64,000 nucleotides of DNA from IMG/VR virus record IMGVR_UViG_3300021093_000004. One strand, given 5' to 3'. This document shows positions 14,665-61,026 of this stretch, one piece after another. Each line of letters starts with the position of its first letter. The stretch's first letter is position 1. Made by a program: the position numbers and the translations under genes. The DNA comes from a virus (taxonomy: Duplodnaviria; Caudoviricetes). The notes under the pieces were generated by a model. That model did not search any database. It saw nothing but the letters and a program-made list of their open reading frames with translations, and was not told the origin of the DNA.

Positions 14665-15255
14665 TTAATCGCCCGACATTGAACGTCCGACAGCTTCCTC
14701 CACTTTTTCGGTGAGTTCGTATAACGGATCTGTCTTTCTGATGGTAGAAAGATTCTGTGGGGTACGAACTTCGTAGGCTTGCTCGAGAGCGAAAAGAACG
14801 GTGAACTTGGTTCGTCCACCATATTCTTTACGTGTTTCGATTTCAACGACCAATCCTGGATTGCAGGATGGGTCCATCAACCGGTCTTCGCTGATGGTAC
14901 TGAATCCGTGAAGACCGATTCCGTGGGCGTCTTGGTGCAGTTCGACCCACTTGAAGTTGTGGCACTTGTTCTGCGTACCCACAATAGCAGCCTCGATAGC
15001 CATTCTATCGAGTGTGGCTCGATCAATGGGTTTGTATCCGTCCCGCCGCTGCCCGGAGATTTTGGTTTCGACGAATCGAGCGGCTGAATAGTCGGCGGCA
15101 AATGGTTCAGTTTTCGCTTGACCCTTCGTTCCGATCCGGCCCCATCGTCGTGTGACGGTTTTGGTTGCTAAGTCGTATACAATCGTCCAAAATTTGTTGT
15201 GGCCGGTACCTTGATGGACGAACAATTGTTCGTCTTTGTACTTGTCTCCCCACAT
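14665..15255 (-). CDS. WGR-domain protein
   Basis: HNKFW.I...VTRRWGRIGTKGQ...K...GY is the WGR signature; GGAGG RBS before ATG 15255. Confidence 0.88.
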   Translation of the reverse strand: MWGDKYKDEQLFVHQGTGHNKFWTIVYDLATKTVTRRWGRIGTKGQAKTEPFAADYSAARFVETKISGQRRDGYKPIDRATLDRMAIEAAIVGTQNKCHNFKWVELHQDAHGIGLHGFSTISEDRLMDPSCNPGLVVEIETRKEYGGRTKFTVLFALEQAYEVRTPQNLSTIRKTDPLYELTEKVEEAVGRSMSGD

Positions 15256-15404
15256 AGTAAATCCTCCTGGTAACATAGGATGGTAACGTCGATGTTATGT
15301 GACGATGACTTCTATATTGGTTAAATACAGTGATATGACATACTTAATTATTTTCGGAATCCATATTATTTTAGCAAGCATCCGGATCTCGAATTGATCA
15401 AGAG

Positions 15405-31289: not shown

Positions 31290-32147
31290 TTAATTATGAA
31301 TTTTTTGCAGTGAACGGTTGAGGCGGCGTAAGAAGCTTTCCGCCACACGGCCACCGTCGTCAGCCCATCGCATCATTTCATTGTCATGTTTAAGTTTTTC
31401 TCGTTCTCGCTGTTGTTCTCGCTCTAGTTGCTCTCGATGCTTTTGTTCATATTCTGCAAATCTTTTCTCGTGTCTAGATGTATCTAAATTGTGATTTTTG
31501 ATTACTTCTTTGGCGGCTTCATCGATTTCAACATCAATATGAACACCATAATTATCCCACCATGTTTTGATCGGATCGTCACCGACCGGGCGGAGCTGGC
31601 CGGTATTGAAGTGGTGGGTTTTTGGGGCGGAACCATATTTAGGTATATTTATCCAGCCCTGCAGTTCGCCTTCTCGTGGGTGAAGTGAGAATGAATCTTC
31701 GTCATCTACTATATCATATAATTTTCCGGCGATTTTTATATCTTCACCGGCATTTGCTTTTCTTTCGATTTCAGAATATATATCAGGCAGAAGGTTGTTT
31801 ACGAAAATCGCATCACCATCCCACTTATCAACTCCAAATTTTATGTCACCATATCCAATTTGTTTGGCAATGTTAGCCGCACTAGCGACAGATTTAAATT
31901 GATCTATTAAGGCTGGTTCATACCGGGTAGCATCAGTGCCAGTAAAAATTGTAAACACGCCCCAGGGAAAGCCACGGAATCGTTCCCACTGTGGAATTAA
32001 CTTGTTTACAGCTTGAGCACCAATAGTATTTTTTGCCACAGCTTGAGCTATTGGCGCATTTCCAGAAAGTGCTGCTGCCGCACCGGCCATACTTTTTAAG
32101 AAATTTCGTCTGGTGAATTCAGCTTCAATTATCAGTGATAATTTCAT
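31290..32147 (-). CDS. Hypothetical protein with a twin-arginine (Tat) signal-like N-terminus
   Basis: MKLSLIIEAEFTRRNFLKSMAGAAAALSG. Confidence 0.75.
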   Translation of the reverse strand: MKLSLIIEAEFTRRNFLKSMAGAAAALSGNAPIAQAVAKNTIGAQAVNKLIPQWERFRGFPWGVFTIFTGTDATRYEPALIDQFKSVASAANIAKQIGYGDIKFGVDKWDGDAIFVNNLLPDIYSEIERKANAGEDIKIAGKLYDIVDDEDSFSLHPREGELQGWINIPKYGSAPKTHHFNTGQLRPVGDDPIKTWWDNYGVHIDVEIDEAAKEVIKNHNLDTSRHEKRFAEYEQKHREQLEREQQREREKLKHDNEMMRWADDGGRVAESFLRRLNRSLQKIHN

Positions 32148-32209
32148 GCCATGGGTCCCATGTATAATGTTTGTTTGGTTGATGTTATATTTGCGTATTT
32201 ATATGTCTT

Positions 32210-38046: not shown

Positions 38047-38571
38047 CTATTCTTCCGTACCATAGAGCGGTTCTGGTTCGTGGCTTACGGATTTAGTGAA
38101 AACCAACTGTCGGCTTAATGATGTTACAAAGACTGCACACCAATAACGCCCAACTTTCGCGAACCCACAATTTTTATATTTTCTGGCTAGAATGTGTCTA
38201 CGATGTCCGGAAGATGACATCCAACCTTGCATGACTGACGTGACTGTGCTATAACCACGTGCGATATTCTCTCCCATTGCTTGTGGACGATGTCCTTCAT
38301 CCCTGATTCTGCTAGCAACGTTCGAACCACGTGATCCTCTGTGCGACAACAATTCGTTATCGGCCATCCATTTTGCATGCTTCTCTGCGGCTGTAACTAA
38401 CTTACTATCGAGAGTTAATATACTTACACCCGCTTTTGTACGTTCATTGTTGTGAGCGACTAACAATTCTCCAGCAACGGACGTTGGTGTAGGTGGTGGC
38501 AATGGGGGTTGTGGCGGAGTAGGTCGGTTTCGTCTAAATATGTCTCGGAGCCAGTACCAAAAATCGCTCAT
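38047..38571 (-). CDS. CAP/SCP-domain protein with a Pro-rich N-terminal linker
   Basis: HNNERTKAG, AAEKHAKWM, GENIA, WMSSSGHRRHIL. Confidence 0.9.
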   Translation of the reverse strand: MSDFWYWLRDIFRRNRPTPPQPPLPPPTPTSVAGELLVAHNNERTKAGVSILTLDSKLVTAAEKHAKWMADNELLSHRGSRGSNVASRIRDEGHRPQAMGENIARGYSTVTSVMQGWMSSSGHRRHILARKYKNCGFAKVGRYWCAVFVTSLSRQLVFTKSVSHEPEPLYGTEE

Positions 38572-38631
38572 TGTTTTTACCCTCAATGGCACCAATTTCA
38601 GTAAATATAGAATAGATTTTGAGGACCACAT

Positions 38632-40611
38632 ATGCCGAGTAACTGGCTAGTTTTCGACAGAATACGTGCACTTACCCGGCAGCACCGTATTTATCAAGCA
38701 GAACGAGTATATCAAGATCAAGCACATCTTGATCGTTTAACTGCTGGCGGCGAATTTCTTGACTTTAATCAACAAGCCGCTATCCTCGATCAGACCAATC
38801 TACAGATTAATAGATTGGAGAGGTATAAAGATTATGAACAAATGGATCAGACTGGCGAAATCAGCCTTGGTTTAGATTTATATGCCGATGAAGCTAGTTT
38901 AGTCGATCCTGAACGAAAACACACATTGATTATTCGAGCACGCAATCGGCGGCTGAAGCACGAGCTTGAAGATTTATTCTTCAATACGCTTCGTTGGGAC
39001 ACATTCTGCCGTCCCACAGTCCGATACCTATGCAAATATGGTGATTCTCCGTTCGAGGTAATTCTGGACGCTAATCGTTCCGGCGTCTCTGCTCTTAAAT
39101 TCATGAACGTCTACAATTTCACCAGAATTGAAACACGATATGGTGATCTTGTTGGATTCTTTTATATGGATGCAATTTGGCCGCGTCCAATGTTTCTTCA
39201 TCCGTGGCAAGTAATGCATTTGCGGTTGACCAGCTTTGAAAACATCTACCATCCATATGGTCGTTCAGTGTTAGATGGCGGACGCAAGGCATTCAAACAA
39301 TTGCGGCTGATGGAAGATGCTGCGTTGATTTACAGAATTACTCGTGCACCGGAGAAACGTAAATTCACTATTCCTGTCGGCATGATTCCGCCAAAAGAAG
39401 TGCCGGAATATATGCAGATGATCGCACGGAATTTCAAACGCCAGCGATTCTATAATCCAACTACCGGCACGTTCGACGAGCGATATTCTCCACTTATTCA
39501 AGAAGATGACTTCTTCTTGCCGCGTCGTCCAGACGGAACTGGTCCGGATGTTGACGTTTTGCCGGGTGCTGAGAACCTCGACCAAATTAAGGATATCGAA
39601 TATTTCAAGAAGAAAATGGTGTCTCCAATGAAAATCCCGTTCGCACGGGTTGGAATTGGGGAGGGGGCTGGCGAAGCCAGTGAAAAATCGCTCTCACAAT
39701 CACACTCGGAATTTTCGAAAGCTGTTCAATGGATACAACGTGAAGTTGCCACCGGATTAACCAAAATTGCTATCATTCACCTCGCGTTACGTGGATATCG
39801 TGTCGAAGATCTGCGTGGATTTGAAGTTGCTCTTACTGCAACTTCTGCGATGGAAGAATTGTATAGAATCGAAACATGGCAAACTCGCGTAGCTGTGATG
39901 GCCGATCTCAAGGATTTGGGATGGTTTCCGAAAGAATGGATTGTGACTCACTTTACCGACTTGTCTCCCGATGAAATTCAAGAATTGAAGGATATGGAGC
40001 AGACTGCTACGCAAAGTGGCAGCAGTGGTGGTGGCTTGGATCTTGGAGTTGGTGATGAAGCACCAACCCCACCAACTGATGCGGCTGATATTCCCACGGA
40101 TGCGGCTGGTGGTGCTCTAGAAGACGCAGCGGGTGCTCTGGGGGCTGAAGCTGGTGGAGACACTCCTCCGCCAATTGAAGGATTCGATTATGCTGCTGAG
40201 AAACGCTTGATACTTGAACTCCGTAAACAAGGTCGCATGAATGAAGCCAAAGTTATCGTGGAGCGATGGGCGGCTCGGATAGGTCGATCAGCAGAAAAAC
40301 CTCTGATTGAACATAGTAGCGGCTACGATTACATTTTGGCTTCCAAAGAACTCGATGGGTTATCGGGATCTCCTCCTACCCTTCGTCATGAAGGTAATGG
40401 GAAATCACCCTCTACGATTTTGGAAGAAATTTACAACCCAAACAAAGATAAAGAGTTACTCGTCGAATGGTCTGTTGACGAAGACACTCGCAATGACGCA
40501 ATCAAAGAGATTTACGACGTTCTGATGGATGGATCGCTAGTAGAATCCGAAGAGGAAGTAACTGAAGTTACCGAAAGCGATCTTCCGTCAGTTGCCGTTA
40601 GTGGCCTTTAG
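38632..40611 (+). CDS. Portal protein (gp20-like)
   Basis: LMEDAALIYRITRAPEKRKF, EDDFFLPRR, IEYFKKKM..PMKIP. Confidence 0.95.
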   Translation: MPSNWLVFDRIRALTRQHRIYQAERVYQDQAHLDRLTAGGEFLDFNQQAAILDQTNLQINRLERYKDYEQMDQTGEISLGLDLYADEASLVDPERKHTLIIRARNRRLKHELEDLFFNTLRWDTFCRPTVRYLCKYGDSPFEVILDANRSGVSALKFMNVYNFTRIETRYGDLVGFFYMDAIWPRPMFLHPWQVMHLRLTSFENIYHPYGRSVLDGGRKAFKQLRLMEDAALIYRITRAPEKRKFTIPVGMIPPKEVPEYMQMIARNFKRQRFYNPTTGTFDERYSPLIQEDDFFLPRRPDGTGPDVDVLPGAENLDQIKDIEYFKKKMVSPMKIPFARVGIGEGAGEASEKSLSQSHSEFSKAVQWIQREVATGLTKIAIIHLALRGYRVEDLRGFEVALTATSAMEELYRIETWQTRVAVMADLKDLGWFPKEWIVTHFTDLSPDEIQELKDMEQTATQSGSSGGGLDLGVGDEAPTPPTDAADIPTDAAGGALEDAAGALGAEAGGDTPPPIEGFDYAAEKRLILELRKQGRMNEAKVIVERWAARIGRSAEKPLIEHSSGYDYILASKELDGLSGSPPTLRHEGNGKSPSTILEEIYNPNKDKELLVEWSVDEDTRNDAIKEIYDVLMDGSLVESEEEVTEVTESDLPSVAVSGL

Positions 40612-40733: not shown

Positions 40734-43700
40734 ATGACATCGAATACAACCGGCCCGGTACGAATTGACAGTCGCAAATTCCTTGGTGCATTGAACGATT
40801 CTGCTCAGGCAAAAGTTGCCGTTTTCGAAGAGCGGATCGAACAAATGGGCCGCTCTGCTGGTAAACAGTGGAGACTAGCTGCTCTTCACGCCAAGCAACT
40901 TTATATTGAAGATGTGAATGCGCAACAATTCTTCATTGCAGAACACGTCCGCGAGGCCCATGGCAAGGTCACAATCACTAATATTAGACCTCTCGAAATT
41001 GTTGAAGAAGAAAAGCAAGGTCTGTTTGCTGAAACCTGCGAGAAATTGGTTTCGGCAATTGAAGAAAACGACCAAAAGGGCATGCAGGTTTCATTTGACC
41101 GCATGAAAGCCCAGCGATTCTCAGGTCGGGCTGTTCCTTACTCTGGTGCTGTTCGATGCCGAGATGGTGTTCTGCGACGCATCAGTATTCAACCGAACAA
41201 TGTCAGTCTCGAAAACAATGTGCGGTCAAAACTGGTCGCTGTGATTGTCGAGAATCTGCGAGATCGCGTTCTTGTCGAGAACGGAACAGTCGTCTCCGGT
41301 TCATTCGGCGATGGAGAACCGATCTCGTTGCCTGTCACGAAATGGGCGGCACGAAAGCTGGTCGCTCGACGGATGATGGAAGCCGCCAAGAATGCATACT
41401 GGTCCGAAGGATTCCAAAACCGCGTCTATCACGCTGCCAGATTGGTGTCTGAAGCGAAAATCGACGACGCTGTTCAGGCTGTGACACCATTCTTAGAATC
41501 GATGGAGGAATTCACACTCCTCAATCGTGCTCAATTCCAGACATTGGTTGAGAACGCATTGGCTTCGAAAGCGATTTTCAACCAGCAACTGTGTGATGAC
41601 ACCGCTACGCTCTTCTTCAGAACCAATATGAAGCTGAGCCGCCGTAAGATTATCGATGAATGGAGAAATATTGCCAAGAAGTCGGAACATCCGGCGTTGA
41701 TGGAAAATGTGCGGATTCTCGAAGAATCGAAGAATTTCGAGAGTGCATACCAGAAATTCTTGGCATTGATTTTCGAAACAATTTCAAACCGAGAAGTCGC
41801 CGCCGAAGCTTTGGCCACGACTTTGGATGTCTTGCGAAACAAGACTCCGAAAATTCGGGAGTCGCACGAATTGTCGAGCAAGTTGAGCAGCTTGATCACG
41901 CGGTTGAAGGACAAAAACTTCGACGATGCTGCGATCTATGAAGCCGAGGATTTGATCGCGACAATTCAAGAAGAGCTTGCTGCCGCCGACACACTTCAGG
42001 GATTCGATCAAATGCCACCTGGAGGTGGTCCGGCTGGAAGTGATGCTCTCGATCTTAGTGGCGATCTTGGGGGCGGCGGTGGTGCTCCTGTCATCAATAT
42101 CAACTCTCCGCTGATTCAAATTGGTGGTCAGAGTTCTGGCGGTGGTGCCGGTAAACCGGGTGCTGGAGCCGCTGGAGAAGTCCCTCCGCCTTCGCCAGCC
42201 GGTGGTGACGAAGATCTGGATGCCCTGTTGGGTGCTGGCGGTGGTGCTCCTCCGGCTCCGGCCCCTGCTGCTGCTCCTGCTGCTCCTGCTGCTCCTGCTC
42301 CGGGTGCTCCTCCGGCTCCGGGCGGTGCTCCGCCGATGGAAGGCAAGTACAAGAAGAAAAAACCACTATCAGAATCCCGTCCTGTTCATTATGAGATGAA
42401 GAAGGACGAAGATGACGATATGCCGTGCGATGACGATGAGATTGAGGAAGGCTTAGATCCATATGCTATTCGGCGTGATGAAGGAATCGATCTCTCAGAA
42501 GGTGTTCATATCACTGATTACGGCACGCCGGTAATCACTGATGAAGGAGACCTCGAAAAGATCATCAGAATCATGCAGCGTTTGGCGACCGAAAATCGTC
42601 TGTCTGGTAAGCTTCTCGAACAAAGCCTTCCCAGCATGGCGAAAGCCTCGTTGAAAGCCTTGGGAATGCGAATCCCAGAAGGCAAGATGTCGAGAGCACT
42701 GGAACAGGTTGTAACGTGCTTTTTGGAAAGTGACGACGATAAGGGTGGTCCATTCCCTGGTGCCGCTCCGCCGTTCAAGAAGAGTGGTTCGGACGATTTT
42801 GTTTGTGATGATTCTGGCGATTCCGGCGATTCCGAGAAGCCATGGGAATCAGATGATTCGGACGATGAGGGTGTGGCCGAAGATCAGTACCGAAGCCCAC
42901 GAATTACTCCACGCGGATATGGCCGTGCCAGCGTTGGGAAGACGACCAAGGAAAGCCGCATTAGATGGGGACAGGCACAGAAAGATGCTGTTCTTGGTGA
43001 ATATGCGGGAGTTCGATTCATCTTCGACCATGGTGGCTCTGATGAATCTCTCACTCCTGTCATCTTGAGTGAAGACGGATCGGTTGAAATTCCAATTCCG
43101 AAAGCACTTTATGAAAGCGCGTTTGCCGCTGCGAAGATGAGCTACGGCGATCCGCGTGCATTCACCAAATGGATCAGTGAATCGATTGAGCAATTGCGTC
43201 CAATTGATGACGGTGAAGACAATGCCTTAAACGAGGCCATGGCGAAAATCACGACCGGTCCGGATGGAACGATATCCGTCGAAGTCTCTGATGATATCGA
43301 TGTTGGAAAACTTGGAGCCGGTGGTGAAGGCGGCGATGATGGTATGATCGCCGACATGGGCGACTCCATGGATGATATGGGCGATGCCGGTGATGATACT
43401 TCCGGAATGTCGCCGGTCGATTCTATCAATGCTCCCGGAGATGATGCTGGAGACATGGGTGGCGATGATGATGCCATGCCAGACTTCGAAAATGGCGAAG
43501 ATTCGATGGATGGAGAAGTCGCTGGTCCACCAGAAATGGGAGACGAGGAGGACGAGGAGGAAGAGGAGGAAGTGGAGGAAGAGGACGAAACCGAAGGAAT
43601 GGTCGAAGATCAGGATGTGACCAGTCCATCGAATGCCAAATATACCAAGCACGTAAAGGATAATTTACGTGATATGCCAACTCCGAAGTTGCCGAAGGCC

Positions 43701-43790
43701 ACTGACGACGAGTTAGAGGACATTGGTCCGACCGTCAAGAAGGATGATGGCACCGGAACCAAGCCGCCAACGGCGAAAAAGGGAGATTAG
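40734..43790 (+). CDS. Large prohead core/scaffold-like protein (1018 aa) with low-complexity segments
   Basis: Sits between portal and protease; Pro/Ala/Gly and Asp/Glu tracts; several hydrophobic-x-E sites. Confidence 0.6.
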   Translation: MTSNTTGPVRIDSRKFLGALNDSAQAKVAVFEERIEQMGRSAGKQWRLAALHAKQLYIEDVNAQQFFIAEHVREAHGKVTITNIRPLEIVEEEKQGLFAETCEKLVSAIEENDQKGMQVSFDRMKAQRFSGRAVPYSGAVRCRDGVLRRISIQPNNVSLENNVRSKLVAVIVENLRDRVLVENGTVVSGSFGDGEPISLPVTKWAARKLVARRMMEAAKNAYWSEGFQNRVYHAARLVSEAKIDDAVQAVTPFLESMEEFTLLNRAQFQTLVENALASKAIFNQQLCDDTATLFFRTNMKLSRRKIIDEWRNIAKKSEHPALMENVRILEESKNFESAYQKFLALIFETISNREVAAEALATTLDVLRNKTPKIRESHELSSKLSSLITRLKDKNFDDAAIYEAEDLIATIQEELAAADTLQGFDQMPPGGGPAGSDALDLSGDLGGGGGAPVININSPLIQIGGQSSGGGAGKPGAGAAGEVPPPSPAGGDEDLDALLGAGGGAPPAPAPAAAPAAPAAPAPGAPPAPGGAPPMEGKYKKKKPLSESRPVHYEMKKDEDDDMPCDDDEIEEGLDPYAIRRDEGIDLSEGVHITDYGTPVITDEGDLEKIIRIMQRLATENRLSGKLLEQSLPSMAKASLKALGMRIPEGKMSRALEQVVTCFLESDDDKGGPFPGAAPPFKKSGSDDFVCDDSGDSGDSEKPWESDDSDDEGVAEDQYRSPRITPRGYGRASVGKTTKESRIRWGQAQKDAVLGEYAGVRFIFDHGGSDESLTPVILSEDGSVEIPIPKALYESAFAAAKMSYGDPRAFTKWISESIEQLRPIDDGEDNALNEAMAKITTGPDGTISVEVSDDIDVGKLGAGGEGGDDGMIADMGDSMDDMGDAGDDTSGMSPVDSINAPGDDAGDMGGDDDAMPDFENGEDSMDGEVAGPPEMGDEEDEEEEEEVEEEDETEGMVEDQDVTSPSNAKYTKHVKDNLRDMPTPKLPKATDDELEDIGPTVKKDDGTGTKPPTAKKGD

Positions 43791-43793
43791 TGA

Positions 43794-44576
43794 ATGTTGC
43801 CTAGCCGTCGATCATATGCCACGCTTATGGAAGAGCGTGGTTTCCCTGCCATCAATCGGGGATTAATCGCTGAAACTGGTGTTATTCCTACCGGTATGCA
43901 GCTTATCCGTGATGTTTTCCCATTCGAAATTATTGATCGGAAAGAAACAGTAACGGAAGACGTTAACGGCAAAGAAGTTCCAGTGATGCGAGTCACTGGG
44001 CTTTTCCAAATGGGCGACAAAGAGAACGCCAATCAACGCTTCTATCCAAGCAATGATGTTCTTGCTCCTGCTGTTCGGGGAATTCAAGAAGACGTTTCTC
44101 ATCGAGCCGTGATGGGTGAATTTGACCACCCAGCCGATGCCAAAATCCATCTCGACCGCGTAAGCCATCTGATCACGAAAGTGTGGATGGATGGGAAGAA
44201 GGTATTCGGTGAAGCTGAAGTGCTTCACAAACTGCCTTGCGGTTCATACCTTCGCGGGTTGTTTGAACATAAAGTTCGAGTTGGTATTTCATCCCGTGGT
44301 GTGGGTGATATGGAAGTCGCGGAACACCATGGACATCAGATTTATCGCGTGATGCCTGGATATTCATTTGTGACGTGGGACGCTGTGGCGGAACCGTCAG
44401 TGAATGGGGCAATTCTGCAAATCCAAGAAAGCCTGAGTCGGCGGTTGAAACCAATTAAGGAATCCCGCAATCGATTCAGTCCGCAAGCATACCAAAATCT
44501 CTTGGTTCAAGAGATTGAAAGTTACTTCGGTTTGGACAAGCGTGGACCAAAGATTCCGAGCCGGTCTCGGAGATAA
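43794..44576 (+). CDS. Prohead maturation protease (gp21-like)
   Basis: NANQRFY, GEFDHP, HLDRVSH, VGISSRGVG, WDAVAEPS. Confidence 0.95.
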   Translation: MLPSRRSYATLMEERGFPAINRGLIAETGVIPTGMQLIRDVFPFEIIDRKETVTEDVNGKEVPVMRVTGLFQMGDKENANQRFYPSNDVLAPAVRGIQEDVSHRAVMGEFDHPADAKIHLDRVSHLITKVWMDGKKVFGEAEVLHKLPCGSYLRGLFEHKVRVGISSRGVGDMEVAEHHGHQIYRVMPGYSFVTWDAVAEPSVNGAILQIQESLSRRLKPIKESRNRFSPQAYQNLLVQEIESYFGLDKRGPKIPSRSRR

Positions 44577-44638: not shown

Positions 44639-45358
44639 ATGAACAAGATCAAGACACTCTTGGAAAAGGCAGGTTGCAACCAGGACTTGGTTGGCAGCAT
44701 CTGCGAGGCCCTTGAGGACTACAAGACAACTCTTCGTGAGCAATACGATTCTGACTACCAGAATCGTATCGAGCAGGCTAAGAAAGTCTGCATCGAAGAG
44801 ACGGAAGCACACAAGAGAGAACTCGCTCGTCGAGTTCAGATCTTCTGTGAGACGAAAGCTGCTGCGATTGAGGCACAGCTTGCTAAGCAGTCGGCCCTTA
44901 GTGAGTCCGAGGCTGTTACCAGGCTTAAGAACGTTATGTCCCTCCTTGAGGGCATCGAGCCGAATGGTGAGCCAAATGGACAAGCTACAGCCGCGTTGGA
45001 CAAGGCAAAGCTCAAGATCCAGCAGGTCAACGAGGAACGCACTCGTGCAGTCGAAGTTGCCAATCGCCAAGTAGCGATCTCCGAGAAAGCTCTCAAGGAG
45101 AATCGACGGTTGGCCGCAGAGAACGCACAACTCAAGCAACGCTTGGGTACGGTCTCTGAGTCACGCCAAACACAAGGCGGACGAAAGAGAATTGACGTAA
45201 GCCGTACTGCCACTCACCCGGTAACGACTCGTCAGACGCTCCTCGAAAATCAGGACCGACGCCAGCCACAACGCAAGGCTTCGCCTGTTCAAACCCAACC
45301 ACAACGTGGGTTTAACATTGGTGACATTGCCGAGGGTATGGACGAAGACCTGATCTAA
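44639..45358 (+). CDS. Prohead scaffolding protein (gp22-like)
   Basis: Coiled coil between protease and capsid genes. Confidence 0.7.
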   Translation: MNKIKTLLEKAGCNQDLVGSICEALEDYKTTLREQYDSDYQNRIEQAKKVCIEETEAHKRELARRVQIFCETKAAAIEAQLAKQSALSESEAVTRLKNVMSLLEGIEPNGEPNGQATAALDKAKLKIQQVNEERTRAVEVANRQVAISEKALKENRRLAAENAQLKQRLGTVSESRQTQGGRKRIDVSRTATHPVTTRQTLLENQDRRQPQRKASPVQTQPQRGFNIGDIAEGMDEDLI

Positions 45359-45401: not shown

Positions 45402-47021
45402 ATGTTACCAACGCGAAGCAGCCGTACTGCGGTGTCTGGCAACGCTCGTCGCCGTCATCTGGTTGAAGGTGCGGGAGCCGGTCGCCGTCCAATTACGGAA
45501 GAAACCGATTTGCACAAGGCATCAGTTTTTCACGAGTCCAAGAAGAATGCACTCGTCAAGAAGTGGTCCCCGGTGCTCAGCAAGTGCCGTGAAGTCACGC
45601 CGCAGAAATTCGGCTTGATGGCGGCAATTCTCGAAAACCAGTACAAGCACAACAATCCGGAAAATCGCTCGGTCATCTTCGAAGACCAGACGACAACCGC
45701 GAACATCGCCGATTTTACTCGGTTCGCTCTTCCGCTCATCCGGAAGTCCTATCCGAAGTTGATTGCTGACAATCTCGTCGGCGTTCAACCGATGAGCCAG
45801 CCAGCCAGCTTGATCTTCTACATCCGATATCGTTACGCTCTCACGAAGGGACAGACGGTTGCCGGAACGCAGATCATGCGTCAGAACACCGCTCAAGGCT
45901 CTGCCCGTCAGAACGGTTGGGCACTTGACCCGTATTACTCTTCGCAAGAAGTTCGTGGCGAAGACGCGACGATTGTCGGTGGCACAGTGATTTCAGCGAC
46001 TCTGGCCCATCGCCCGGTTCTCGCTGGAACGGTCGTGGTCGAAGCATTCGCCAGCGAAGCCGATGCAGGCCCGAACTGCGATGACGCAGTGCCTTGCTTG
46101 CGAGTTACCTTCGATGCGGACGGCAGTCCCGATACCGTGTTGGTTGGTGACTGCACTGAGTTCACCGCTAACATCTCTGTTGATACGGTTACTGCTGGTG
46201 CGACAACCTTCAACCACACAACCGGTGCAGTTCAGATCACTCTGAGTGCCGGTGTTTTCCCGGGTGGAGCTGTCGCACGGGTGAACTACGAGTACGATCT
46301 CGAAGCCAACCCGTTCCAGCCGGAAGTTACGTTGAGCATCGACAGCGATTCGGTCGCTGCTATCACCCGCAAGCTGAAGACCTCTTGGTCGCTGGAAGCC
46401 GCTCAAGACCTGAAGTCGGTGCACAACATCGATGCCGAGAGCACCTTGACGGACTTGATGGCCGACGAAATGGTCGCCGAAATCGACCGCGAAATCATCA
46501 ACGACTTGATCATTTCCGCCTCGATTCGTGCTGATCACAACTTCGCGACGGCAGCCGGTGCATCGGTCAACTTCACAGACCGCAACATCGCGTTGATGTA
46601 CAAGACGCTCGAAGTCGCCAACATCATCCACCGCACCACTCTCCGTGGTCCGGCGAACTGGATGGTGATGAGTGCTGACATCTGCTCGAAGTTCGAGCAG
46701 TTGAATGACTTCCGTGCATCGGACGCCTTCACTACAGAAGGTGTGGATGTCGGCATCATGAACGTCGGCACGATCCAAGGCAAGATGCGGATTTACAAAG
46801 ATCCGCTCTTCCCGAATTGCAAGATCCTGCTCGGATTTAAGGGCAGCAGCGTTCTGGATGCGGGCTACTTCTACGCCCCATACATTCCGTTGCTCAGCAC
46901 GCCGACCGTTCTCGATCCAAACAGCTTCACGCCGAACAAGGGTATCATGACCCGATACGGCAAGAAGCTCATCGAAGACGGTGGTCTGTACTACGCAACC
47001 ATCACGGTCTCTAACCTCTAA
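45402..47021 (+). CDS. Major capsid protein (gp23-like)
   Basis: KKWSPVL, VGVQPMSQP, RKLKTSWSLEAAQDL, AEIDREII, GYFYAPYIPL, GIMTRYG. Confidence 0.97.
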   Translation: MLPTRSSRTAVSGNARRRHLVEGAGAGRRPITEETDLHKASVFHESKKNALVKKWSPVLSKCREVTPQKFGLMAAILENQYKHNNPENRSVIFEDQTTTANIADFTRFALPLIRKSYPKLIADNLVGVQPMSQPASLIFYIRYRYALTKGQTVAGTQIMRQNTAQGSARQNGWALDPYYSSQEVRGEDATIVGGTVISATLAHRPVLAGTVVVEAFASEADAGPNCDDAVPCLRVTFDADGSPDTVLVGDCTEFTANISVDTVTAGATTFNHTTGAVQITLSAGVFPGGAVARVNYEYDLEANPFQPEVTLSIDSDSVAAITRKLKTSWSLEAAQDLKSVHNIDAESTLTDLMADEMVAEIDREIINDLIISASIRADHNFATAAGASVNFTDRNIALMYKTLEVANIIHRTTLRGPANWMVMSADICSKFEQLNDFRASDAFTTEGVDVGIMNVGTIQGKMRIYKDPLFPNCKILLGFKGSSVLDAGYFYAPYIPLLSTPTVLDPNSFTPNKGIMTRYGKKLIEDGGLYYATITVSNL

Positions 47022-48208: not shown

Positions 48209-49108
48209 ATGGCTACCAATTTTGATGATATTACGTTCGACGCACAATCGCATACCTATAGGCTTGGTAATCAGGCTCTGATTCCTGTTACGTCCATTGT
48301 GAAATGGTTGACTCCAGAATTCCGTAGTGACGAAATGTTGGAAACAAAAGCCGCCACATCTGGAAGATCGAAAGCGGATATCCAAGCCGAATGGGATTCG
48401 AAGCGTGATATTGGATTAGACAAAGGTACGCGGGTCCACAATTATATCGAGAATGTTCTTGAAGGACGTGATCCGCGTTTATTGCTTTCTGTCAACGACC
48501 ATTTACATGAAATGAAACAATTTGACATCGCCTGGGGGCGTATGTGCTCCAGATTGTCAGCGAAATTTGATCGTAAGGAGTGGACTGTTGGTGATGCTGA
48601 ATTAGGTGTTGCTGGGCGAGTGGATGCTATTTTACGGATCGTTATTGAATCCGAAGAAAAGCGATGCTTGTTCGACTGGAAGACTGGGAAATTCATGGTT
48701 CGGAAGTATGCTCGTGAAACGATGCTTCCGCCATTTGATGATCTTCCATGTTGTGAAGAAATTAAATATAGTATTCAGTTGAGCCTATATCGCTTGATTA
48801 TCGAACGAAATACCGATGAGCGATTATTCAATGGATTTATTCTACATCTCCCTGCCGAATATCAACACAATCTTTACAATGTAATCGATTTGCGAGAACG
48901 TCTTGAAACGTGGCTGCTTAAAATGCGGGCAGAAGGGCGTCTAGGCGATCCAGAGGGCGACAAGAAAGCCTTGCGAGTGGCTAAATCTCTGGATCAATTC
49001 GATGATGATATTCTTCGAATTCTGTCGCCGCAATCTCGCAAAAAATTGTTATTGAAAGCGGCGAAGTTGTTAAAGCGTGGCCAGCAATATTTTAATGAGC
49101 CGACATAG
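48209..49108 (+). CDS. PD-(D/E)XK exonuclease (Cas4-like fold)
   Basis: FDAQSHTY, KGTRVH, GVAGRVD, LFDWKT, YSIQLSLY. Confidence 0.85.
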   Translation: MATNFDDITFDAQSHTYRLGNQALIPVTSIVKWLTPEFRSDEMLETKAATSGRSKADIQAEWDSKRDIGLDKGTRVHNYIENVLEGRDPRLLLSVNDHLHEMKQFDIAWGRMCSRLSAKFDRKEWTVGDAELGVAGRVDAILRIVIESEEKRCLFDWKTGKFMVRKYARETMLPPFDDLPCCEEIKYSIQLSLYRLIIERNTDERLFNGFILHLPAEYQHNLYNVIDLRERLETWLLKMRAEGRLGDPEGDKKALRVAKSLDQFDDDILRILSPQSRKKLLLKAAKLLKRGQQYFNEPT

Positions 49109-49140
49109 AAGAAGGCCGCTTTCACGACCTTCTTCTATGT
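49103..49140. terminator. Hairpin after the nuclease gene
   Basis: 13-bp stem ACATAGAAGAAGG/CCTTCTTCTATGT. Confidence 0.6.
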
Positions 49141-49161
49141 CGGCTCATTAAAATATAGTGC

Positions 49162-49647
49162 ATGAAACTTCGCACTATACTCGAATTCGTAGAACCTGAG
49201 ATTAATGCGGCAGATCCCGAAGATTGGGAGGCTGCTGATCAGGCAGACCGTATTGCTAGCAATTCGGGAATTAGAATATCTCGGAATAAAGAGTTAACAC
49301 TAGTCGCACAAGTAGGTGGCGAAGTTGTCGGGGCGGTTTGGTCAGCGTTCGAACGTGACGATGAAGCAAGTCAAGAATACGGAGAGGATGTATACCGCTT
49401 CGATTTTGACGTTGCAGTTGATCCAAAATCGCGAGCTATGGGCATGGCGTCTGCTCGGATTGGGCCAAAACTTATTGATGCTGCTTTAGACCACTACCGC
49501 TCACTGAAATCTGAATTTGGAAATGCCTACATCCGTGTGTATGTTGTGAATCCGAAATTAGCCGGTTATCTGGAACGACGTTACGGATTTGAACCGGAAG
49601 GACGTGGATGGTCTCAAGATAGTTTACATATGATTTATCACGGATAA
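49162..49647 (+). CDS. GNAT-fold acetyltransferase-like protein
   Basis: LVAQVGGEVVGAV, FDVAVDPKSRAMG...IG..L, YLERRYGF. Confidence 0.7.
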   Translation: MKLRTILEFVEPEINAADPEDWEAADQADRIASNSGIRISRNKELTLVAQVGGEVVGAVWSAFERDDEASQEYGEDVYRFDFDVAVDPKSRAMGMASARIGPKLIDAALDHYRSLKSEFGNAYIRVYVVNPKLAGYLERRYGFEPEGRGWSQDSLHMIYHG

Positions 49648-50673
49648 TCCGGGCGTTTGTGTATTTCGAGCGATCTTGTCTTTGTCGATTCTCAGATTTG
49701 TGATAATATTTGTCATTCGTTCAATCATAAATCCCAATAATACTGCCGCGTCTGGAAAAACGATCCTTTCGGCACTTGAATGGCTGATATCTAGCTCGTT
49801 CCACAGTTCAATATTCTGCATTACTGTGGTTTGATATCCTCTAATTACTCTGGCTAGACCACAAATATTCTCACATTGTATAGGATTTCGCTTGTGCGGC
49901 ATGCTGGATGATCCGACTTGGTTTTCTTCAAATCCTTCTGCCATTTCTTCTATTCCGCTTTGTGATAATAGCCGAATATCGGTTGCAATTTTCGCGATTG
50001 CACTTGCCAATAATGCCCATTCATTCATGCGTTCTGCATAGATGCCACGGTGGATGATCTGCCCATCATACAAGCCTTCGACGAGATTCAGTTTAGACAG
50101 CGTGTTTATAACGACAGCACGATTGACATACTTTAGTGATCCTACACTATCCGCCAATCGTCCGTAATAAGCACATTTGAATGTTCCGTACCTGAGAATT
50201 GTGTGCAAATATGTATCGAACTTTTGGCTGAGTGGCATTAGTTCTGCGGCCTGCCCATGAGTTCGTCCCACGATCATAATTCCATCACACTCAGAGATTT
50301 TCTGCTTGAGTATAGATACGAGTGCTCGCAAGAGATCAGTGATAACTTCATTGCTGGCACGGATCATCATAGAAAAAGCGGTGTCAACAATGTCCGATGA
50401 AGTCAAACCATAATGCACGAATCGGCTGAATAATGGATCAGTTTCGTGTACTTTCGATTCGAGCCACTCAACGAATGCGACTACATCGTGTTTCGTTTGC
50501 ATTTCTCTCGATTGGATGTCATCGATCCACGATGACTCGAAATGATCAGGGGCGAGAATGGAGACGGCTTTTAGTTCTGACAGAAATGATAATTCAATTT
50601 GCGTCCATACAAGGTATTTATTGCCAATGGACCAAATTTCTGAGATTTTTGGGTGATCGTATCGTGGTAACAT
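49624..50673 (-). CDS. purB: Adenylosuccinate lyase, C-terminally short
   Basis: TKHDV, HYGLTSSD, GRTHGQ and signature SSSMPHKRNPIQCE. Confidence 0.88.
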   Translation of the reverse strand: MLPRYDHPKISEIWSIGNKYLVWTQIELSFLSELKAVSILAPDHFESSWIDDIQSREMQTKHDVVAFVEWLESKVHETDPLFSRFVHYGLTSSDIVDTAFSMMIRASNEVITDLLRALVSILKQKISECDGIMIVGRTHGQAAELMPLSQKFDTYLHTILRYGTFKCAYYGRLADSVGSLKYVNRAVVINTLSKLNLVEGLYDGQIIHRGIYAERMNEWALLASAIAKIATDIRLLSQSGIEEMAEGFEENQVGSSSMPHKRNPIQCENICGLARVIRGYQTTVMQNIELWNELDISHSSAERIVFPDAAVLLGFMIERMTNIITNLRIDKDKIARNTQTPGLSVINHM

Positions 50674-53423: not shown

Positions 53424-53496
<73 letters not shown>

Positions 53497-53567
53497 CTTG
53501 AGGAATCATTCGTTCAATTTAATCGAAAACTAGCAACGATTGGTAAGCAAGATTCAAGCATGATCCA

Positions 53568-55595: not shown

Positions 55596-55726
55596 TATAA
55601 ATCTTTCGGATTTTCTTTGAGATGATCTTTCGCGATTTCTTTGGCGACTCTGCTGTCTGATGTCTGTTCTAATTTGGTTTCGATTCTCATTCGAAGTTGT
55701 TCGGGATCGAATTTACGTAGTCGCAT
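55592..55726 (-). CDS. Micro-ORF (44 aa), DUF5661-like
   Basis: MRLRKFDPEQLRMRIETKLEQTSDSRVAKEIAKDHLKENPKDLY; absent from the ORF track. Confidence 0.55.
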   Translation of the reverse strand: MRLRKFDPEQLRMRIETKLEQTSDSRVAKEIAKDHLKENPKDLY

Positions 55727-55730
55727 AAGC

Positions 55731-56186
55731 TTATAACGAAACGTCTTCATCAGTCAAATAATAGGTAGCTCCGAAACCCTCACGAAATCCGTGCTTTTTA
55801 TAGATTTGGGCAGACCCTTCCGTCGAAGATAGGTACAATCCAGCCCCATGGTCTGCGGCTACGGACTTTAAACCTCTTATGACTTCTGATCCAATTCCAG
55901 GATGGGCGGTTGCTAAACTTCCTATTCTTAAATAATCGCCCTTGGGCATCCCTTCAGAGTCTCCATGATCTGGTGCTTTCCAGAGACTAGCCACTCCTAC
56001 AAGCTTGCCGCTGTGATCTCTAAATGCATGAACATCGAACCATTTCGGAGAATCACCTGTGGCAGCCGATAGGGCTCGTTGCAATCTTTCTCCGTCTGGA
56101 AACGAATTTAGAATTTCATATACGATTGTTCTTCCATCTAACACTTGACTTCGAAGCCTATTTTCATCTATTATTCGTAGTCGCAT
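55731..56186 (-). CDS. GNAT-fold acetyltransferase-like protein
   Basis: LVGVASLW, YLRIGSLA...GIGSEVI, GLYLSS...IYKKHGF; probable start MRLRIIDE at 56186. Confidence 0.72.
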   Translation of the reverse strand: MRLRIIDENRLRSQVLDGRTIVYEILNSFPDGERLQRALSAATGDSPKWFDVHAFRDHSGKLVGVASLWKAPDHGDSEGMPKGDYLRIGSLATAHPGIGSEVIRGLKSVAADHGAGLYLSSTEGSAQIYKKHGFREGFGATYYLTDEDVSL

Positions 56187-56222
56187 ACTGGCCCGTTTCC
56201 TATCCTGGGCGGTCACACTTAT

Positions 56223-56296
56223 GCCGCTATCAGCTAGAAACCAAGGCTACCCGGTTCTAAGCCGGGTAACGGTGGGTTCGAATCACCATAGCGGTA
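56223..56296 (+). tRNA. Atypical tRNA with CTA anticodon (amber suppressor-like)
   Basis: GCCGCTA/TAGCGGT acceptor, CCCGG-TTCTAAG-CCGGG anticodon arm, imperfect T-stem. Confidence 0.65.
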
Positions 56297-56907: not shown

Positions 56908-56988
56908 GTACATGTGGTGGAATGGTAGACACGCTGGTCTTAGGAGCCAGTGCCGTAAGGTGTGAGGGTCCGAGTCCCTCCGTCCACA
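56908..56988 (+). tRNA. tRNA-Leu(TAG), degenerate acceptor stem
   Basis: GGTGGAATGGTAGACAC D-arm, loop CTTAGGA, long variable arm, two acceptor mismatches. Confidence 0.7.
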
Positions 56989-57079
56989 CTATTTAAGTAC
57001 CGTCAGCCGCAAGGCTACCATCGTGGAAATATCACGAAGGCGATGATCGTAGCCACAGTCCTTACTAAAGGCTCATAAT

Positions 57080-57162
57080 GGTCGTGTGGTGGAATGATAG
57101 ACACGGGGGTCTCAAAAGCCGCTGATCGTAAGATCGTGAGGGTTTAACTCCCTCCTTGACTA
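57080..57162 (+). tRNA. tRNA-Leu(CAA), degenerate
   Basis: Leu-type D-arm, loop CTCAAAA, T-loop TTTAACT, anticodon-stem mismatch. Confidence 0.65.
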
Positions 57163-57167
57163 TTATA

Positions 57168-57241
57168 GGGCGTTTAGCTCAGTTGGTAGAGCATCTGCTC
57201 GACACGCAGAAGGTGCACTGGTTCTACTCCAGTAATGCCCA
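57168..57241 (+). tRNA. tRNA-Val(GAC), atypical (C33, T-loop TTCTACT)
   Basis: GGGCGTT/AATGCCC acceptor, TAGCTCAGTTGGTAGAGC D-arm. Confidence 0.75.
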
Positions 57242-57252
57242 CTGTATTTTAC

Positions 57253-57334
57253 GGAGGGTATCCGAATGATCAGGAAGCCGTTTCGAAAACAGCCGGGTCG
57301 AAAGGCTTTTAGGGTTCGAATCCCTTGTCCTCCG
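57253..57334 (+). tRNA. tRNA-Ser(CGA), slightly degenerate
   Basis: GGAGGGT/GTCCTCC acceptor, loop TTCGAAA, long variable arm, GTTCGAATC. Confidence 0.7.
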
Positions 57335-57348
57335 CTTGATAGGTGAAT

Positions 57349-57765
57349 ATGTACGCAATATTATACAATGATGCTCAATTAAAAATCGCTGATATTCACG
57401 CTGAATGTGGGCATGAACGATGGGTGCCCTTAATGGTATATCGTCCAATTGATGATCCAGGAGGTCTACCCAGACTAGTCCTATTTGATAATAAGGACTC
57501 AGCCTATCGGTTCGCGAGGCGCAACGTGACTTCTCAAATGGAGAAAAAAGGATGGCTGCGTGGATCGGTATTTCTGACACGAGAAGACATTGAAGCAATC
57601 AAAGCACGTGGATGGATATTAGACATATTCCAATGGCCTCGGAAAATCATTGGAAATAAAGATTTATTGGTGAGCTTTGAAGTTCACGAATTCGCTGGCC
57701 GAGTAGATGTGAGACATATCCATGGTAAAACACGACCAGAGCTTCCCAAATCTGACGATCTTTGA
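57349..57765 (+). CDS. Hypothetical protein
   Basis: AGGTG RBS before ATG 57349. Confidence 0.65.
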   Translation: MYAILYNDAQLKIADIHAECGHERWVPLMVYRPIDDPGGLPRLVLFDNKDSAYRFARRNVTSQMEKKGWLRGSVFLTREDIEAIKARGWILDIFQWPRKIIGNKDLLVSFEVHEFAGRVDVRHIHGKTRPELPKSDDL

Positions 57766-57973
57766 TGATTTCTTGCCGCCAGAAGAACTCGCGTATTGGA
57801 AGGAACGAGTCGAAACCGGCGAAGAATCGGTCTGTTTATACGGGGACGACATCAAAAAACACGGAATTATATAAGAGATGTCGAGAATTAGTCGGTCAAT
57901 CCGACAGATGGTTCATTGCGATCTTCGATAGTATTGAAATGGCGATTGCCTCTTGAATATATTTCGTGATTAT

Positions 57974-58058
57974 GACCGGATGGTGGAATGGTAGACACTA
58001 GGGACTTAAAATCCCTTGCTCTGTAACGGGCGTGAGGGTTCGACTCCCTCTCCGGTCA
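57974..58058 (+). tRNA. tRNA-Leu(TAA), intact
   Basis: GACCGGA/TCCGGTC acceptor, loop CTTAAAA, GTTCGACTC. Confidence 0.92.
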
Positions 58059-58066
58059 CTGAATCT

Positions 58067-58846: not shown

Positions 58847-60277
58847 ATGAAGCTGAAACTCATTACCGAAGGTATATCGTACTTACCAAATTCTGGAGTC
58901 GATCTTGCTCAAATTGAGCAACGACTCCAGGGTGAGGCAAAGGTCAATCAAATTGATTTGATGCAATTTCTTGAGGCTAATGGTACGTTTGTATTCCAAC
59001 CGCAAGATTCTCCAAATGATATTATCAAGATTGAACCATTTCAAAAATCTGTTAATCTCAATATAGCTCCTACCGACCCTGAAGCCCTAGAATCATTTCA
59101 AGGGGCACGGATATACTATGCATATCGTGTGGCTGATCCCGCAGACATCGACCTCGATTTCTACAAAGCAAAACAAGAACCGCCGATTTTACGAGCCCTT
59201 AGTGCTATTTCTCCACCACGAGGAAAATTCAGAAGATTGAATAATCTTGATTCTCTGTCAGCAAAACACCAAGAATTATTGAGAGACCTAAATAGTAAAT
59301 CGGTTCAATATCACAACGATGCCCACCGTGCACAAGTACACGGTGAATTGCAGGGTGACATTGATGTCATAAAACAAGTCGAAGGACTGCTGAAGACAAA
59401 TGGAGTGGAATCAGTCGATGGCCTGAGAAAAATACTTGCTAAATCAACTCGCCGATATAATACAGGCAAGAAAAAACTGTTACCGGCTCTTAAAAATGCT
59501 CTTGGGCATATTATTAAACATCCACGCAATGCACATGAAGCTCAACTGCGTACTACTATATTGGATCAGATTATTAACAAAGTCAATGTAATCGGACAGT
59601 GGGGCGATGGGCACGATGTTTTCCCGGACATTATTGCATACCCAACTTCGACTGTTCGTGCTGGTGAGACTCAAAGTTTCAATCAGGAATTCGCGAATCG
59701 CATCTCTGAAGCATATGGTGGTGTTCCGGTAATTGAAATTGCCAAACGGCCCAGAGAAGACACCACCGATTACTTCGAATCGACTATTGATCGTGCTGCG
59801 CTTCAGCGATTTGCAAATACTATACATAACAAATACTTAACGACGCCGCCAGGTCCGGCGTTAGCGAAAAAAAGGCAAATTACCAGGAAGACACAATTAA
59901 AATATTTGGGGGCAGTTCGATACAACGAAACGATACTCCCAACTGATCCTAGATGGCCTAAGTTGTGGGCTGACAAAGAATTTGCGAAGCTTCAGAAGGG
60001 GCTAGAACGTACGCCGGTTGGTCTACAGCCAACTTATAAATCACTTGCCGGACCATCCGGCAGCATGGGATCTAAACGGCGATACGTACAATTATTTGGG
60101 AAAAGTGCCGGAGTATCCCAATATAATTCGGATGATCAGCTACGAGGGAAAAATGTCTTAATTGTAGATGATAATATTCAGTATGGCGGAACCATGGAAA
60201 CGCTCCACAAATTAGTGAATGAAGCGTCTCCACAGAGTATAACCGTCTTTGTTCCGTTTTATTTCGGAAAGTTCTAG
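58847..60277 (+). CDS. Phosphoribosyltransferase-fold protein (476 aa)
   Basis: C-terminal GKNVLIVDDNIQYGGTM PRPP-loop motif; DIIAYPTS. Confidence 0.65.
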   Translation: MKLKLITEGISYLPNSGVDLAQIEQRLQGEAKVNQIDLMQFLEANGTFVFQPQDSPNDIIKIEPFQKSVNLNIAPTDPEALESFQGARIYYAYRVADPADIDLDFYKAKQEPPILRALSAISPPRGKFRRLNNLDSLSAKHQELLRDLNSKSVQYHNDAHRAQVHGELQGDIDVIKQVEGLLKTNGVESVDGLRKILAKSTRRYNTGKKKLLPALKNALGHIIKHPRNAHEAQLRTTILDQIINKVNVIGQWGDGHDVFPDIIAYPTSTVRAGETQSFNQEFANRISEAYGGVPVIEIAKRPREDTTDYFESTIDRAALQRFANTIHNKYLTTPPGPALAKKRQITRKTQLKYLGAVRYNETILPTDPRWPKLWADKEFAKLQKGLERTPVGLQPTYKSLAGPSGSMGSKRRYVQLFGKSAGVSQYNSDDQLRGKNVLIVDDNIQYGGTMETLHKLVNEASPQSITVFVPFYFGKF

Positions 60278-60465: not shown

Positions 60466-61026
60466 TCATAGAGTCCGATTTTTGCCAGCAGCCCTGTGAT
60501 TATAGCCTTCTCTGTGTTGGTTCGTGGCATGTCGGGGAATCGGTGGCTGTACATGTTGGTTCAATAGGGTAAAGACTTGAAGTAGGAATGCCTGTACGAA
60601 ATCTCCAATACCAGGGCTAGTCTTGTCAGAATTTCCTGCTATGTTCAGGATTTTGATATCGTTCTCGATGATCCAGTTCGACACATCTTCAGGCGTCGTG
60701 GTTTCACGTCTAACGTCAATCGACAGGCTCGGTTTGCCATATTGCCGAATCATTTTCGCGGTGAGTTGTTCTCCCGGTGACACGAAATTCGACGCGAACC
60801 GTATAGTCCCATCTGATTCTTTCACATTTAGAGCGGTGCGTGGTGGGTATTCAGGGCTTTCGTGTTCTTTGATGCCGTATTGGTAAGCGAACTCTGGATG
60901 AGACCCGTCGTGTGCCTTGAAGCCTTTCGGCATCCATCCACCGGTCTTTAACCCGGCTGTAATAGCCGCGTCCAATCCCGCTCGGTCGGCTCCGGTCTGC
61001 CCTCCAGAAATCACTTTGGTTAACAT
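60466..61026 (-). CDS. SLOG-superfamily protein (putative molybdenum carrier / circularly permuted YpsA-like)
   Basis: VISGGQTGADRAGLDAA, GGWMPKG, YPPRT..NV..SDGT, LNIAGN. Confidence 0.85.
   Translation of the reverse strand: MLTKVISGGQTGADRAGLDAAITAGLKTGGWMPKGFKAHDGSHPEFAYQYGIKEHESPEYPPRTALNVKESDGTIRFASNFVSPGEQLTAKMIRQYGKPSLSIDVRRETTTPEDVSNWIIENDIKILNIAGNSDKTSPGIGDFVQAFLLQVFTLLNQHVQPPIPRHATNQHREGYNHRAAGKNRTL

Follow-up and report, generated by a model that had tools for sequence, protein, structure and literature searches.

An eight-residue N-terminal tag shared by unrelated proteins in a large relative of phage T4: a candidate capsid-targeting propeptide, joined in one family to a Tat-type signal

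The locus and the head module

The window (i.e., the whole stretch of 64,000 nucleotides analyzed here) belongs to a large, distant relative of T4, as judged from its gp20-, gp21-, and gp23-type genes (Pfam). Its genome is represented by record G000, a near-identical fragment of 100,391 bp with 27 mismatches versus the window. The near-complete genomes G003 (408 kb) and G004 (354 kb) are relatives, and the proteases of close relatives are 67 to 85% identical. The closest capsid protein among GenBank phages, from a 595-kb uncultured phage, is only 40% identical, and those of cyanophages and RM378 are ~29% identical to that of the window. ARAGORN predicts six tRNAs in the window, one at 53424-53497 and the other five from 56908 to 58059, and none at 56223-56296. 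At least 13 ORFs of G000, mostly structural, start with Met-Pro (e.g., MPVY, MPGF, MPAV, MPAL, and MPSN), which is above our expectation; examples lie at window positions 3881, 5081, 7984, 9257, 17569, 21416, and 38632.

The focal gene is an open reading frame whose product begins with MKLSLIIE, at the earliest start codon available after a stop. Several unrelated proteins of this phage open with the same octapeptide pattern, M-[KR]-L-x-x-[IL]-x-E (here called the tag or leader). The features of the window considered below are as follows.

14665-15276, minus strand (minority strand): WGR-domain protein
31290-32147, minus strand: focal ORF (285 aa), comprising leader, putative Tat-type signal, globular domain, and long C-terminal helix
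32124-32147, minus strand: leader MKLSLIIE, residues 1 to 8 of the focal protein, candidate propeptide ending in I-I-E (from sequence, conservation, and pLDDT)
32040-32123, minus strand: putative Tat-type signal, residues 9 to 36, AEF-TRRNFLK-SMAGAAAALSGNAPI-AQA (from motif and Pfam TAT_signal)
32186-32203, minus strand: late-promoter-like words TATAAATA (32196-32203) and AAATATA (32186-32192), 49 and 38 nt ahead of the start codon (ATG) of the focal ORF
38047-38631, minus strand: CAP-domain protein (cysteine-rich secretory protein family), hydrophobic at its N terminus, in head-to-head orientation to the portal gene
38632-40611, plus strand: portal protein, gp20 family (Pfam Portal_T4, E = 5e-67)
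43794-44576, plus strand: prohead protease, Peptidase_S77, T4 gp21 family (Pfam, E = 4e-17; PHROG 207, E = 1.5e-38)
44639-45358, plus strand: scaffold-like coiled-coil protein at the gp22 position (putative role, from position and composition)
45402-47021, plus strand: major capsid protein, gp23 family (Pfam Gp23, E = 6e-80)
49162-49647, plus strand: GNAT acetyltransferase (161 aa), leader MKLRTILE (from sequence and Pfam)
49624-50673, minus strand (minority strand): Lyase_1-family (PurB-like) lyase
55731-56186, minus strand: second GNAT-superfamily protein (151 aa from ATG), leader MRLRIIDE (from sequence and Pfam)
58847-60277, plus strand: 476-aa protein with a C-terminal phosphoribosyltransferase (PRTase) domain, leader MKLKLITE (from sequence and Pfam)
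60466-61026, minus strand (minority strand): circularly permuted YpsA SLOG protein

The gp21 homolog invoked by the original prediction is thus identified by both Pfam and PHROG, and the two sites that it had read in the capsid protein were located at residues 20 to 22 (LVE) and 31 to 33 (ITE), where orthologs keep [LI]-x-E. The N-terminal region of the capsid protein (~95 residues) holds four [IL]-x-E words, and in the protease the word IAE (residues 25 to 27) is invariant in 14 orthologs. Both proteins open with MLP[ST]R, after which come a basic stretch and conserved [LIV]-x-E words (in the orthologs on L001 to L022), and these words are compatible with a cleavage specificity like that of T4. 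MLP[ST]R (43794-43850 and 45402-45700) is a second shared N-terminal pattern, separate from the MKL tag. The scaffold-like protein is rich in [IL]-x-E and starts with MNKIKTLLE; this start was considered as a tag copy and rejected, the resemblance being loose and the Glu not conserved. Between the portal and protease genes lies a 1,018-aa ORF (40734-43790, plus strand), found in all relatives at 50 to 67% identity and without a Pfam or PHROG match; its product is possibly a head-internal protein.

Distribution and conservation of the tag

The original prediction had listed four tagged N termini in the window, and all four were recovered as ORF starts: MKLSLIIE (32147, minus strand), MKLRTILE (49162, plus strand), MRLRIIDE (56186, minus strand), and MKLKLITE (58847, plus strand). 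The start of MRLRIIDE is ambiguous because of an in-frame GTG at 56216, ten codons upstream. A proposed weaker fifth member, MRLRKFDPE at 55726, was dropped, since its Met lies inside an ORF beginning with MKTFRYKL and it has no Ile6 or Glu8 in register. The start MLPRYDHPKISE of a 349-aa ORF was likewise rejected as a leader, because its body is a Lyase_1-family lyase; we take this N terminus to resemble those of adenylosuccinate lyases.

The tag could in principle reflect chance, composition bias, or the ordinary first strands of folds, as two of the four tagged window proteins are GNATs and Met-Lys-Leu is a common bacterial start. GNATs often start M-x-I-R. The counts from a motif scan, as suggested with the original prediction, effectively refute this explanation. 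In all six frames of G000, ORFs of at least 40 aa were searched for the start pattern M-[KR]-L-x-x-[ILVF]-x-E, and the expected number of N-terminal matches was derived from how often [KR]L..[ILV].E occurs internally. Exactly six leader ORFs were found versus ~0.05 expected among ~126 ORFs (Poisson p of order 1e-10), and all six G000 ORFs that start with M[KR]L have the complete motif. The two copies outside the window are MKLRTIAE (179 aa) and MKLRQLSE (78 aa). At the DNA level, the motif pattern matched four times in G000 and its reversed-pattern control not once.

The relatives behave in the same way: G003 has 8 leader ORFs versus 0.16 expected (one G003 match, within a paralog family, is probably false), and 4 strict leader ORFs were counted in G004 versus 0.09 expected, along with 3 relaxed or extended variants. 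Further copies lie on six other related contigs. Over three genomes, at least 10 unrelated families are tagged, which also speaks against chance, and the bodies of the G000, G003, and G004 sets are mutually unrelated by BLASTP. Leader genes are scattered and often isolated on the opposite strand; the head module contains none of them. As a DNA pattern, the exact motif is not enriched in the distant relatives LR756511, LR756508, S-SRM01, and RM378; the tag in its exact form therefore belongs to one clade.

Selection on the tag acts on amino acids, as indicated by the random-looking synonymous positions of 31 non-identical copies. Leu3 is encoded by both CTN and TTR codons (TTA, CTT, CTA, CTG, and CTC) with 11 A, 6 C, 6 G, and 8 T at the third position, and Ile6 codons also vary (13 A, 9 C, 1 G, and 8 T). 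An RNA-level motif was rejected on these grounds. At the peptide level, all 31 copies have [IL]-x-E at positions 6 to 8, and 19 of the 31 carry a small residue (Ser, Gly, or Ala) at position 9. Orthologs from G003 and G004 retain the tag in four families at 21 to 54% body identity, namely, the 78-aa protein (30 to 45%), the 179-aa protein (47%), the GNAT (54%), and the PRTase-domain protein (21%), whose G004 ortholog begins MKLDMIYNCVSE-G.

The tagged bodies are diverse. Pfam and PHROG searches of 16 leader proteins from the relatives returned nearly all of them as orphans. One G003 protein resembles ADP-ribosyltransferases (ART-PolyVal, E = 2e-5, under the curated cutoff), and its tag stands just ahead of the His-bearing first strand. 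The two window GNATs belong to the same superfamily without detectable mutual similarity (E = 0.19), and a sequence search of the PDB with the GNAT at 49162 gave no match. Among the 36 homologs of this GNAT, near relatives retain M-[KR]-L-x-x-[IL]-x-E, and more distant ones have a longer leader version ending in L-L-E. Two homologs (P0034 and P0035) are tagless and start with MN-V(R/E)I(V/I)PW, which aligns to residues ~11 to 16 of the window protein, i.e., the first strand of the fold. The tagless start of P0035 is real, as this gene has a GAGGTG ribosome site and its upstream frame enters a neighboring divergent gene. The existence of tagless homologs and the position of the first GNAT strand after the tag are further evidence against the tag as an ordinary first strand. 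The tag is thus real, selected as a peptide, clade-wide, modular, and functional.

Upstream words, the Tat-type signal, and internal copies

The word TAAATATAG lies 22 nt upstream of the portal gene, and G-TAAATATA (38603-38611) is kept 20 to 35 nt ahead of the portal start codon in at least eight diverged relatives (including L003, L005, L009, L014, L015, L018, and L022), in which the flanks diverge. Given this conservation, G-TAAATATA is probably the late-promoter core of the clade. In six genomes, [TCA]AAATA-N6-ATG, with the core that is also kept ahead of the portal gene, abuts several genes, mostly tagged ones (window 49150-49164; L009:17924; L014:1029; G003 382703; G004 207341 and 128419), which suggests that these would yield leaderless late mRNAs. 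The word AAAATATA lies 4 nt ahead of the ATG of the GNAT at 49162, downstream of a 22-bp hairpin. This hairpin region (49105-49150) is a perfect, terminator-like inverted repeat of ~22 bp that separates the tagged GNAT from a 299-aa PD-(D/E)XK-like gene. AAATATA occurs within 60 nt of only 5 of 19 leader genes, or about a quarter, versus 3% of other genes (p = 4e-4). It was rejected as a strong genome-wide promoter signal, its intergenic enrichment being just two to three times. Overall, the promoter evidence for a late timing of the leader genes is weak.

These upstream words bear on an explanation in which the tag is unrelated to the capsid and is an N-terminal expression or stability module of certain accessory genes (e.g., those read from late mRNAs that are leaderless or have no Shine-Dalgarno sequence), the focal protein being a plain Tat-exported product. 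The promoter-like core lying exactly 6 nt before the ATG of several leader genes agrees with such a module, as do the Shine-Dalgarno word being present in just 3 of 19 leader genes and the Shine-Dalgarno site of a tagless GNAT homolog. However, the depletion of this word is not significant (p = 0.06 to 0.09), because only ~36% of all ORFs have one, and its absence was rejected as a mark of leader genes. The random synonymous positions speak against an RNA-level signal, translation gives no reason for an invariant Glu8 and Ile6, and cytoplasmic-type enzymes (GNAT, PRTase, and ART-like) carry the tag without an export signal.

Directly after the tag, the N terminus of the focal protein is predicted to carry a Tat-type export signal, which the original prediction had overlooked. 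TRRNFLK (residues 12 to 18) fits the twin-arginine motif S/T-R-R-x-F-L-K and is followed by a weakly hydrophobic, Gly/Ala-rich h-region, SMAGAAAALSGNAPI, and then by AQA at residues 34 to 36; in most homologs, A-x-A is not obvious. The focal protein itself scores under the profile cutoffs (Pfam TAT_signal, 22.5 versus 22.7 bits; TIGR01409, 13.1 versus 16.7). At E <= 0.1, TIGR01409 is matched by 9 of 15 members of the family (best E = 6e-12). An exhaustive HMMER search gave a family of 18 representatives; a word-indexed homology search returned only the focal protein itself, tblastn against GenBank phages gave no match, and no homolog was found in G001 to G005. In the alignment of representatives, the N terminus reads M[KR]L-x-x-[IV]-x-E, then 2 to 4 residues, and then [ST]RR[DEN]FL[KR], with Glu8 and Arg14 among just five columns whose conservation is 90% or more. 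In the relative L008 (15052-15255, plus strand), a different body starts MKLSAIIEVDSRRDFLKK, in an ORF that ends at the contig edge; the combination of tag and Tat-type signal thus recurs on another body.

The Tat-type signal argues for a periplasmic destination of the focal protein. Its conservation across the family also favors the explanation without a capsid, under which the focal protein would act in superinfection exclusion, envelope remodeling, or lysis control and MKLSLIIE would be part of the n-region. The tag and spacer place 12 residues before the RR pair, which is a normal n-region length; in Tat signals such as TorA, the n-region is about as long. The focal N terminus could therefore be a plain signal peptide. 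We regard this explanation of the tag as a whole as the main rival reading, possible but unlikely; it also leaves the internal copies described below unaccounted for.

The focal protein was modeled with AlphaFold, which gave a pLDDT of 42 from the single sequence and a mean pLDDT of 81 with the family alignment. In the latter model, residues 1 to 8 are below 50, residues 9 to 60 are low, and a confident alpha/beta domain begins at about residue 61, together with a 60-residue C-terminal helix. The tag is thus predicted to be disordered and to lie outside the fold. Foldseek searches of the PDB, AFDB clusters, VIA-align wide, and ESM Atlas recovered no relative of the fold; only the C-terminal helix was matched, to coiled coils.

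Two family members carry the I-x-E word and the RRDFLK motif internally. P0042 (520 aa; L061:6001-7563) is a tandem duplication of the focal family, in which the second unit is joined via ...KAINSINE-AGMSRRDFLKKSAVGALAMSPLGKLL (junction SINE-AGMSRRDFLKK). In P0050 (L062:6001-7542), ...QQAILE-AEGYNRRDFLKLLGK lies between the family domain and an unrelated C-terminal domain (junction AILE-AEGYNRRDFLK). A Tat signal placed inside a chain is not functional as it stands, and the two proteins, which look like polyproteins, would make sense if cut after I-x-E. They represent the best indirect sign in our data of cleavage at the I-x-E word.

Taken by themselves, these junctions would also suit a tag that is a protease site and nothing else, with a phage or host protease cutting after I/L-x-E in the cytoplasm for zymogen or polyprotein processing; in the focal family, the cut would unmask or separate units bearing the Tat signal. 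The near-invariant Glu8 is in line with this, as is the agreement of I-x-E with the cleavage preference of the S77 protease in T4 (PMC9026906). Yet gp21 is active only within proheads, as established for T4 alone, and a disordered eight-residue tag outside the fold offers no obvious means to inactivate a GNAT or PRTase. Moreover, Leu3 matches the cleavage word in its degree of conservation, which suggests a second function such as binding. Processing alone seems to us quite improbable.

Proposed capsid targeting and comparison with known systems

The best-supported mechanism is that the tag is a T4-like capsid-targeting propeptide removed by cleavage, to which we assign a probability of about one-half. 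It is the best reading of the I/L-x-E ending together with the S77 protease, scaffold-like, and gp23-type genes nearby. In T4, gp21 cleaves after L/I-X-E, and the capsid-targeting sequence (CTS) of IPIII, its first 10 residues, is sufficient for a foreign protein to be packaged into heads; residues 4 and 7 (hydrophobic and three apart) are the main determinants of targeting and residues 8 and 10 those of processing, and the internal proteins are otherwise diverse (PMC9026906, PMC3012670). The account of a roughly 10-aa T4 leader cut by gp21 after I/L-x-E, from which the original prediction had started, agrees with PMC9026906.

For the tagged set (i.e., two GNATs, the PRTase-domain protein, two small orphans, and the focal protein), we infer core binding, cleavage, packaging, ejection, and, in the focal case, Tat export. 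Leu3 and Ile6, two hydrophobic positions, would dock a tagged protein onto the assembling head core, and the gp21-family (S77) prohead protease would remove the tag after Glu8, at I/L-x-E. The matured protein would then remain in the head and exit with the DNA. Removal of MKLSLIIE from the focal protein would leave the N terminus AEF-TRRNFLK, a Tat signal with a short n-region, and the delivered protein may then pass by Tat export into the periplasm of the new host cell; its mature domain would act there.

The main difficulty for a simple capsid reading is that Tat export from the producing cell competes with loading into the prohead. A two-stage label would combine the two signals: the protein would be loaded into the capsid, cleavage would bare the Tat signal, and the injected protein would be re-exported to the periplasm, with the relatives bearing internal modules being split into exportable units. 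We regard this extension as doubtful. If it is true, the focal protein would be the first phage cargo routed from the capsid through the cytoplasm to the periplasm.

If the tag does load proteins into the capsid, this clade of huge phages from the environment ships a changing set of enzymes (acetyltransferases, PRTase-domain and ART-like proteins, and many orphans) into the host with its DNA, and the internal-protein principle of T4 would reach far beyond the T-even phages. A simple sequence rule would then list injected effectors in uncultured phages, and the eight residues would be a candidate tag by which foreign proteins could be packaged in capsids.

The tag was compared with the T4 CTS as described in PMC9026906. 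Like the CTS of IPI, IPII, and IPIII and the Alt-type propeptides, it is a short leader shared by unrelated proteins (PMC9026906, PMC3012670). It also resembles the CTS in its Met-Lys start, in a hydrophobic pair three residues apart (here Leu3 and Ile6), and in its I-x-E end. The window phage has homologs of gp20, gp21, and gp23, and, as in T4, the tagged set differs among related genomes, that of one relative including an ART-like protein (cf. T4 Alt). The tag differs from the CTS in having 8 residues rather than 10 and in sharing only Met-Lys and I-x-E with it, without sequence homology. In further contrast to T4, the nucleotide sequence of the leader is not conserved between copies in the window phage, the leader genes are scattered with no IP locus, the cargo consists mostly of enzyme-sized proteins and orphans, and one cargo family adds a Tat signal; the genome is well over 200 kb.

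The giant phages phiKZ, 201phi2-1, and SPN3US, which contain much internal protein, also have an S77-related protease (a diverged gp21 homolog that cleaves at S/A-X-E), and many of their head-internal proteins are cut after Glu (PMC9026906, PMC10052503). Their sites are S/A/G-X-E, however, lying deeper in long propeptides with no fixed octapeptide, and the capsid genes of phiKZ-like phages are not T4-like, unlike those of the window phage (PMC9026906, PMC10052503).

The focal N terminus resembles bacterial Tat signals in its S/T-R-R-x-F-L-K motif, weakly hydrophobic h-region, and A-x-A site, as well as in the HMM matches across the family. It is unlike them in being encoded by a phage, in being preceded by a tag common to nonexported proteins, and in occurring internally in two relatives. 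If the capsid reading is true, this pairing of tag and Tat signal adds a new idea, that of a delivered protein sent on to the periplasm.
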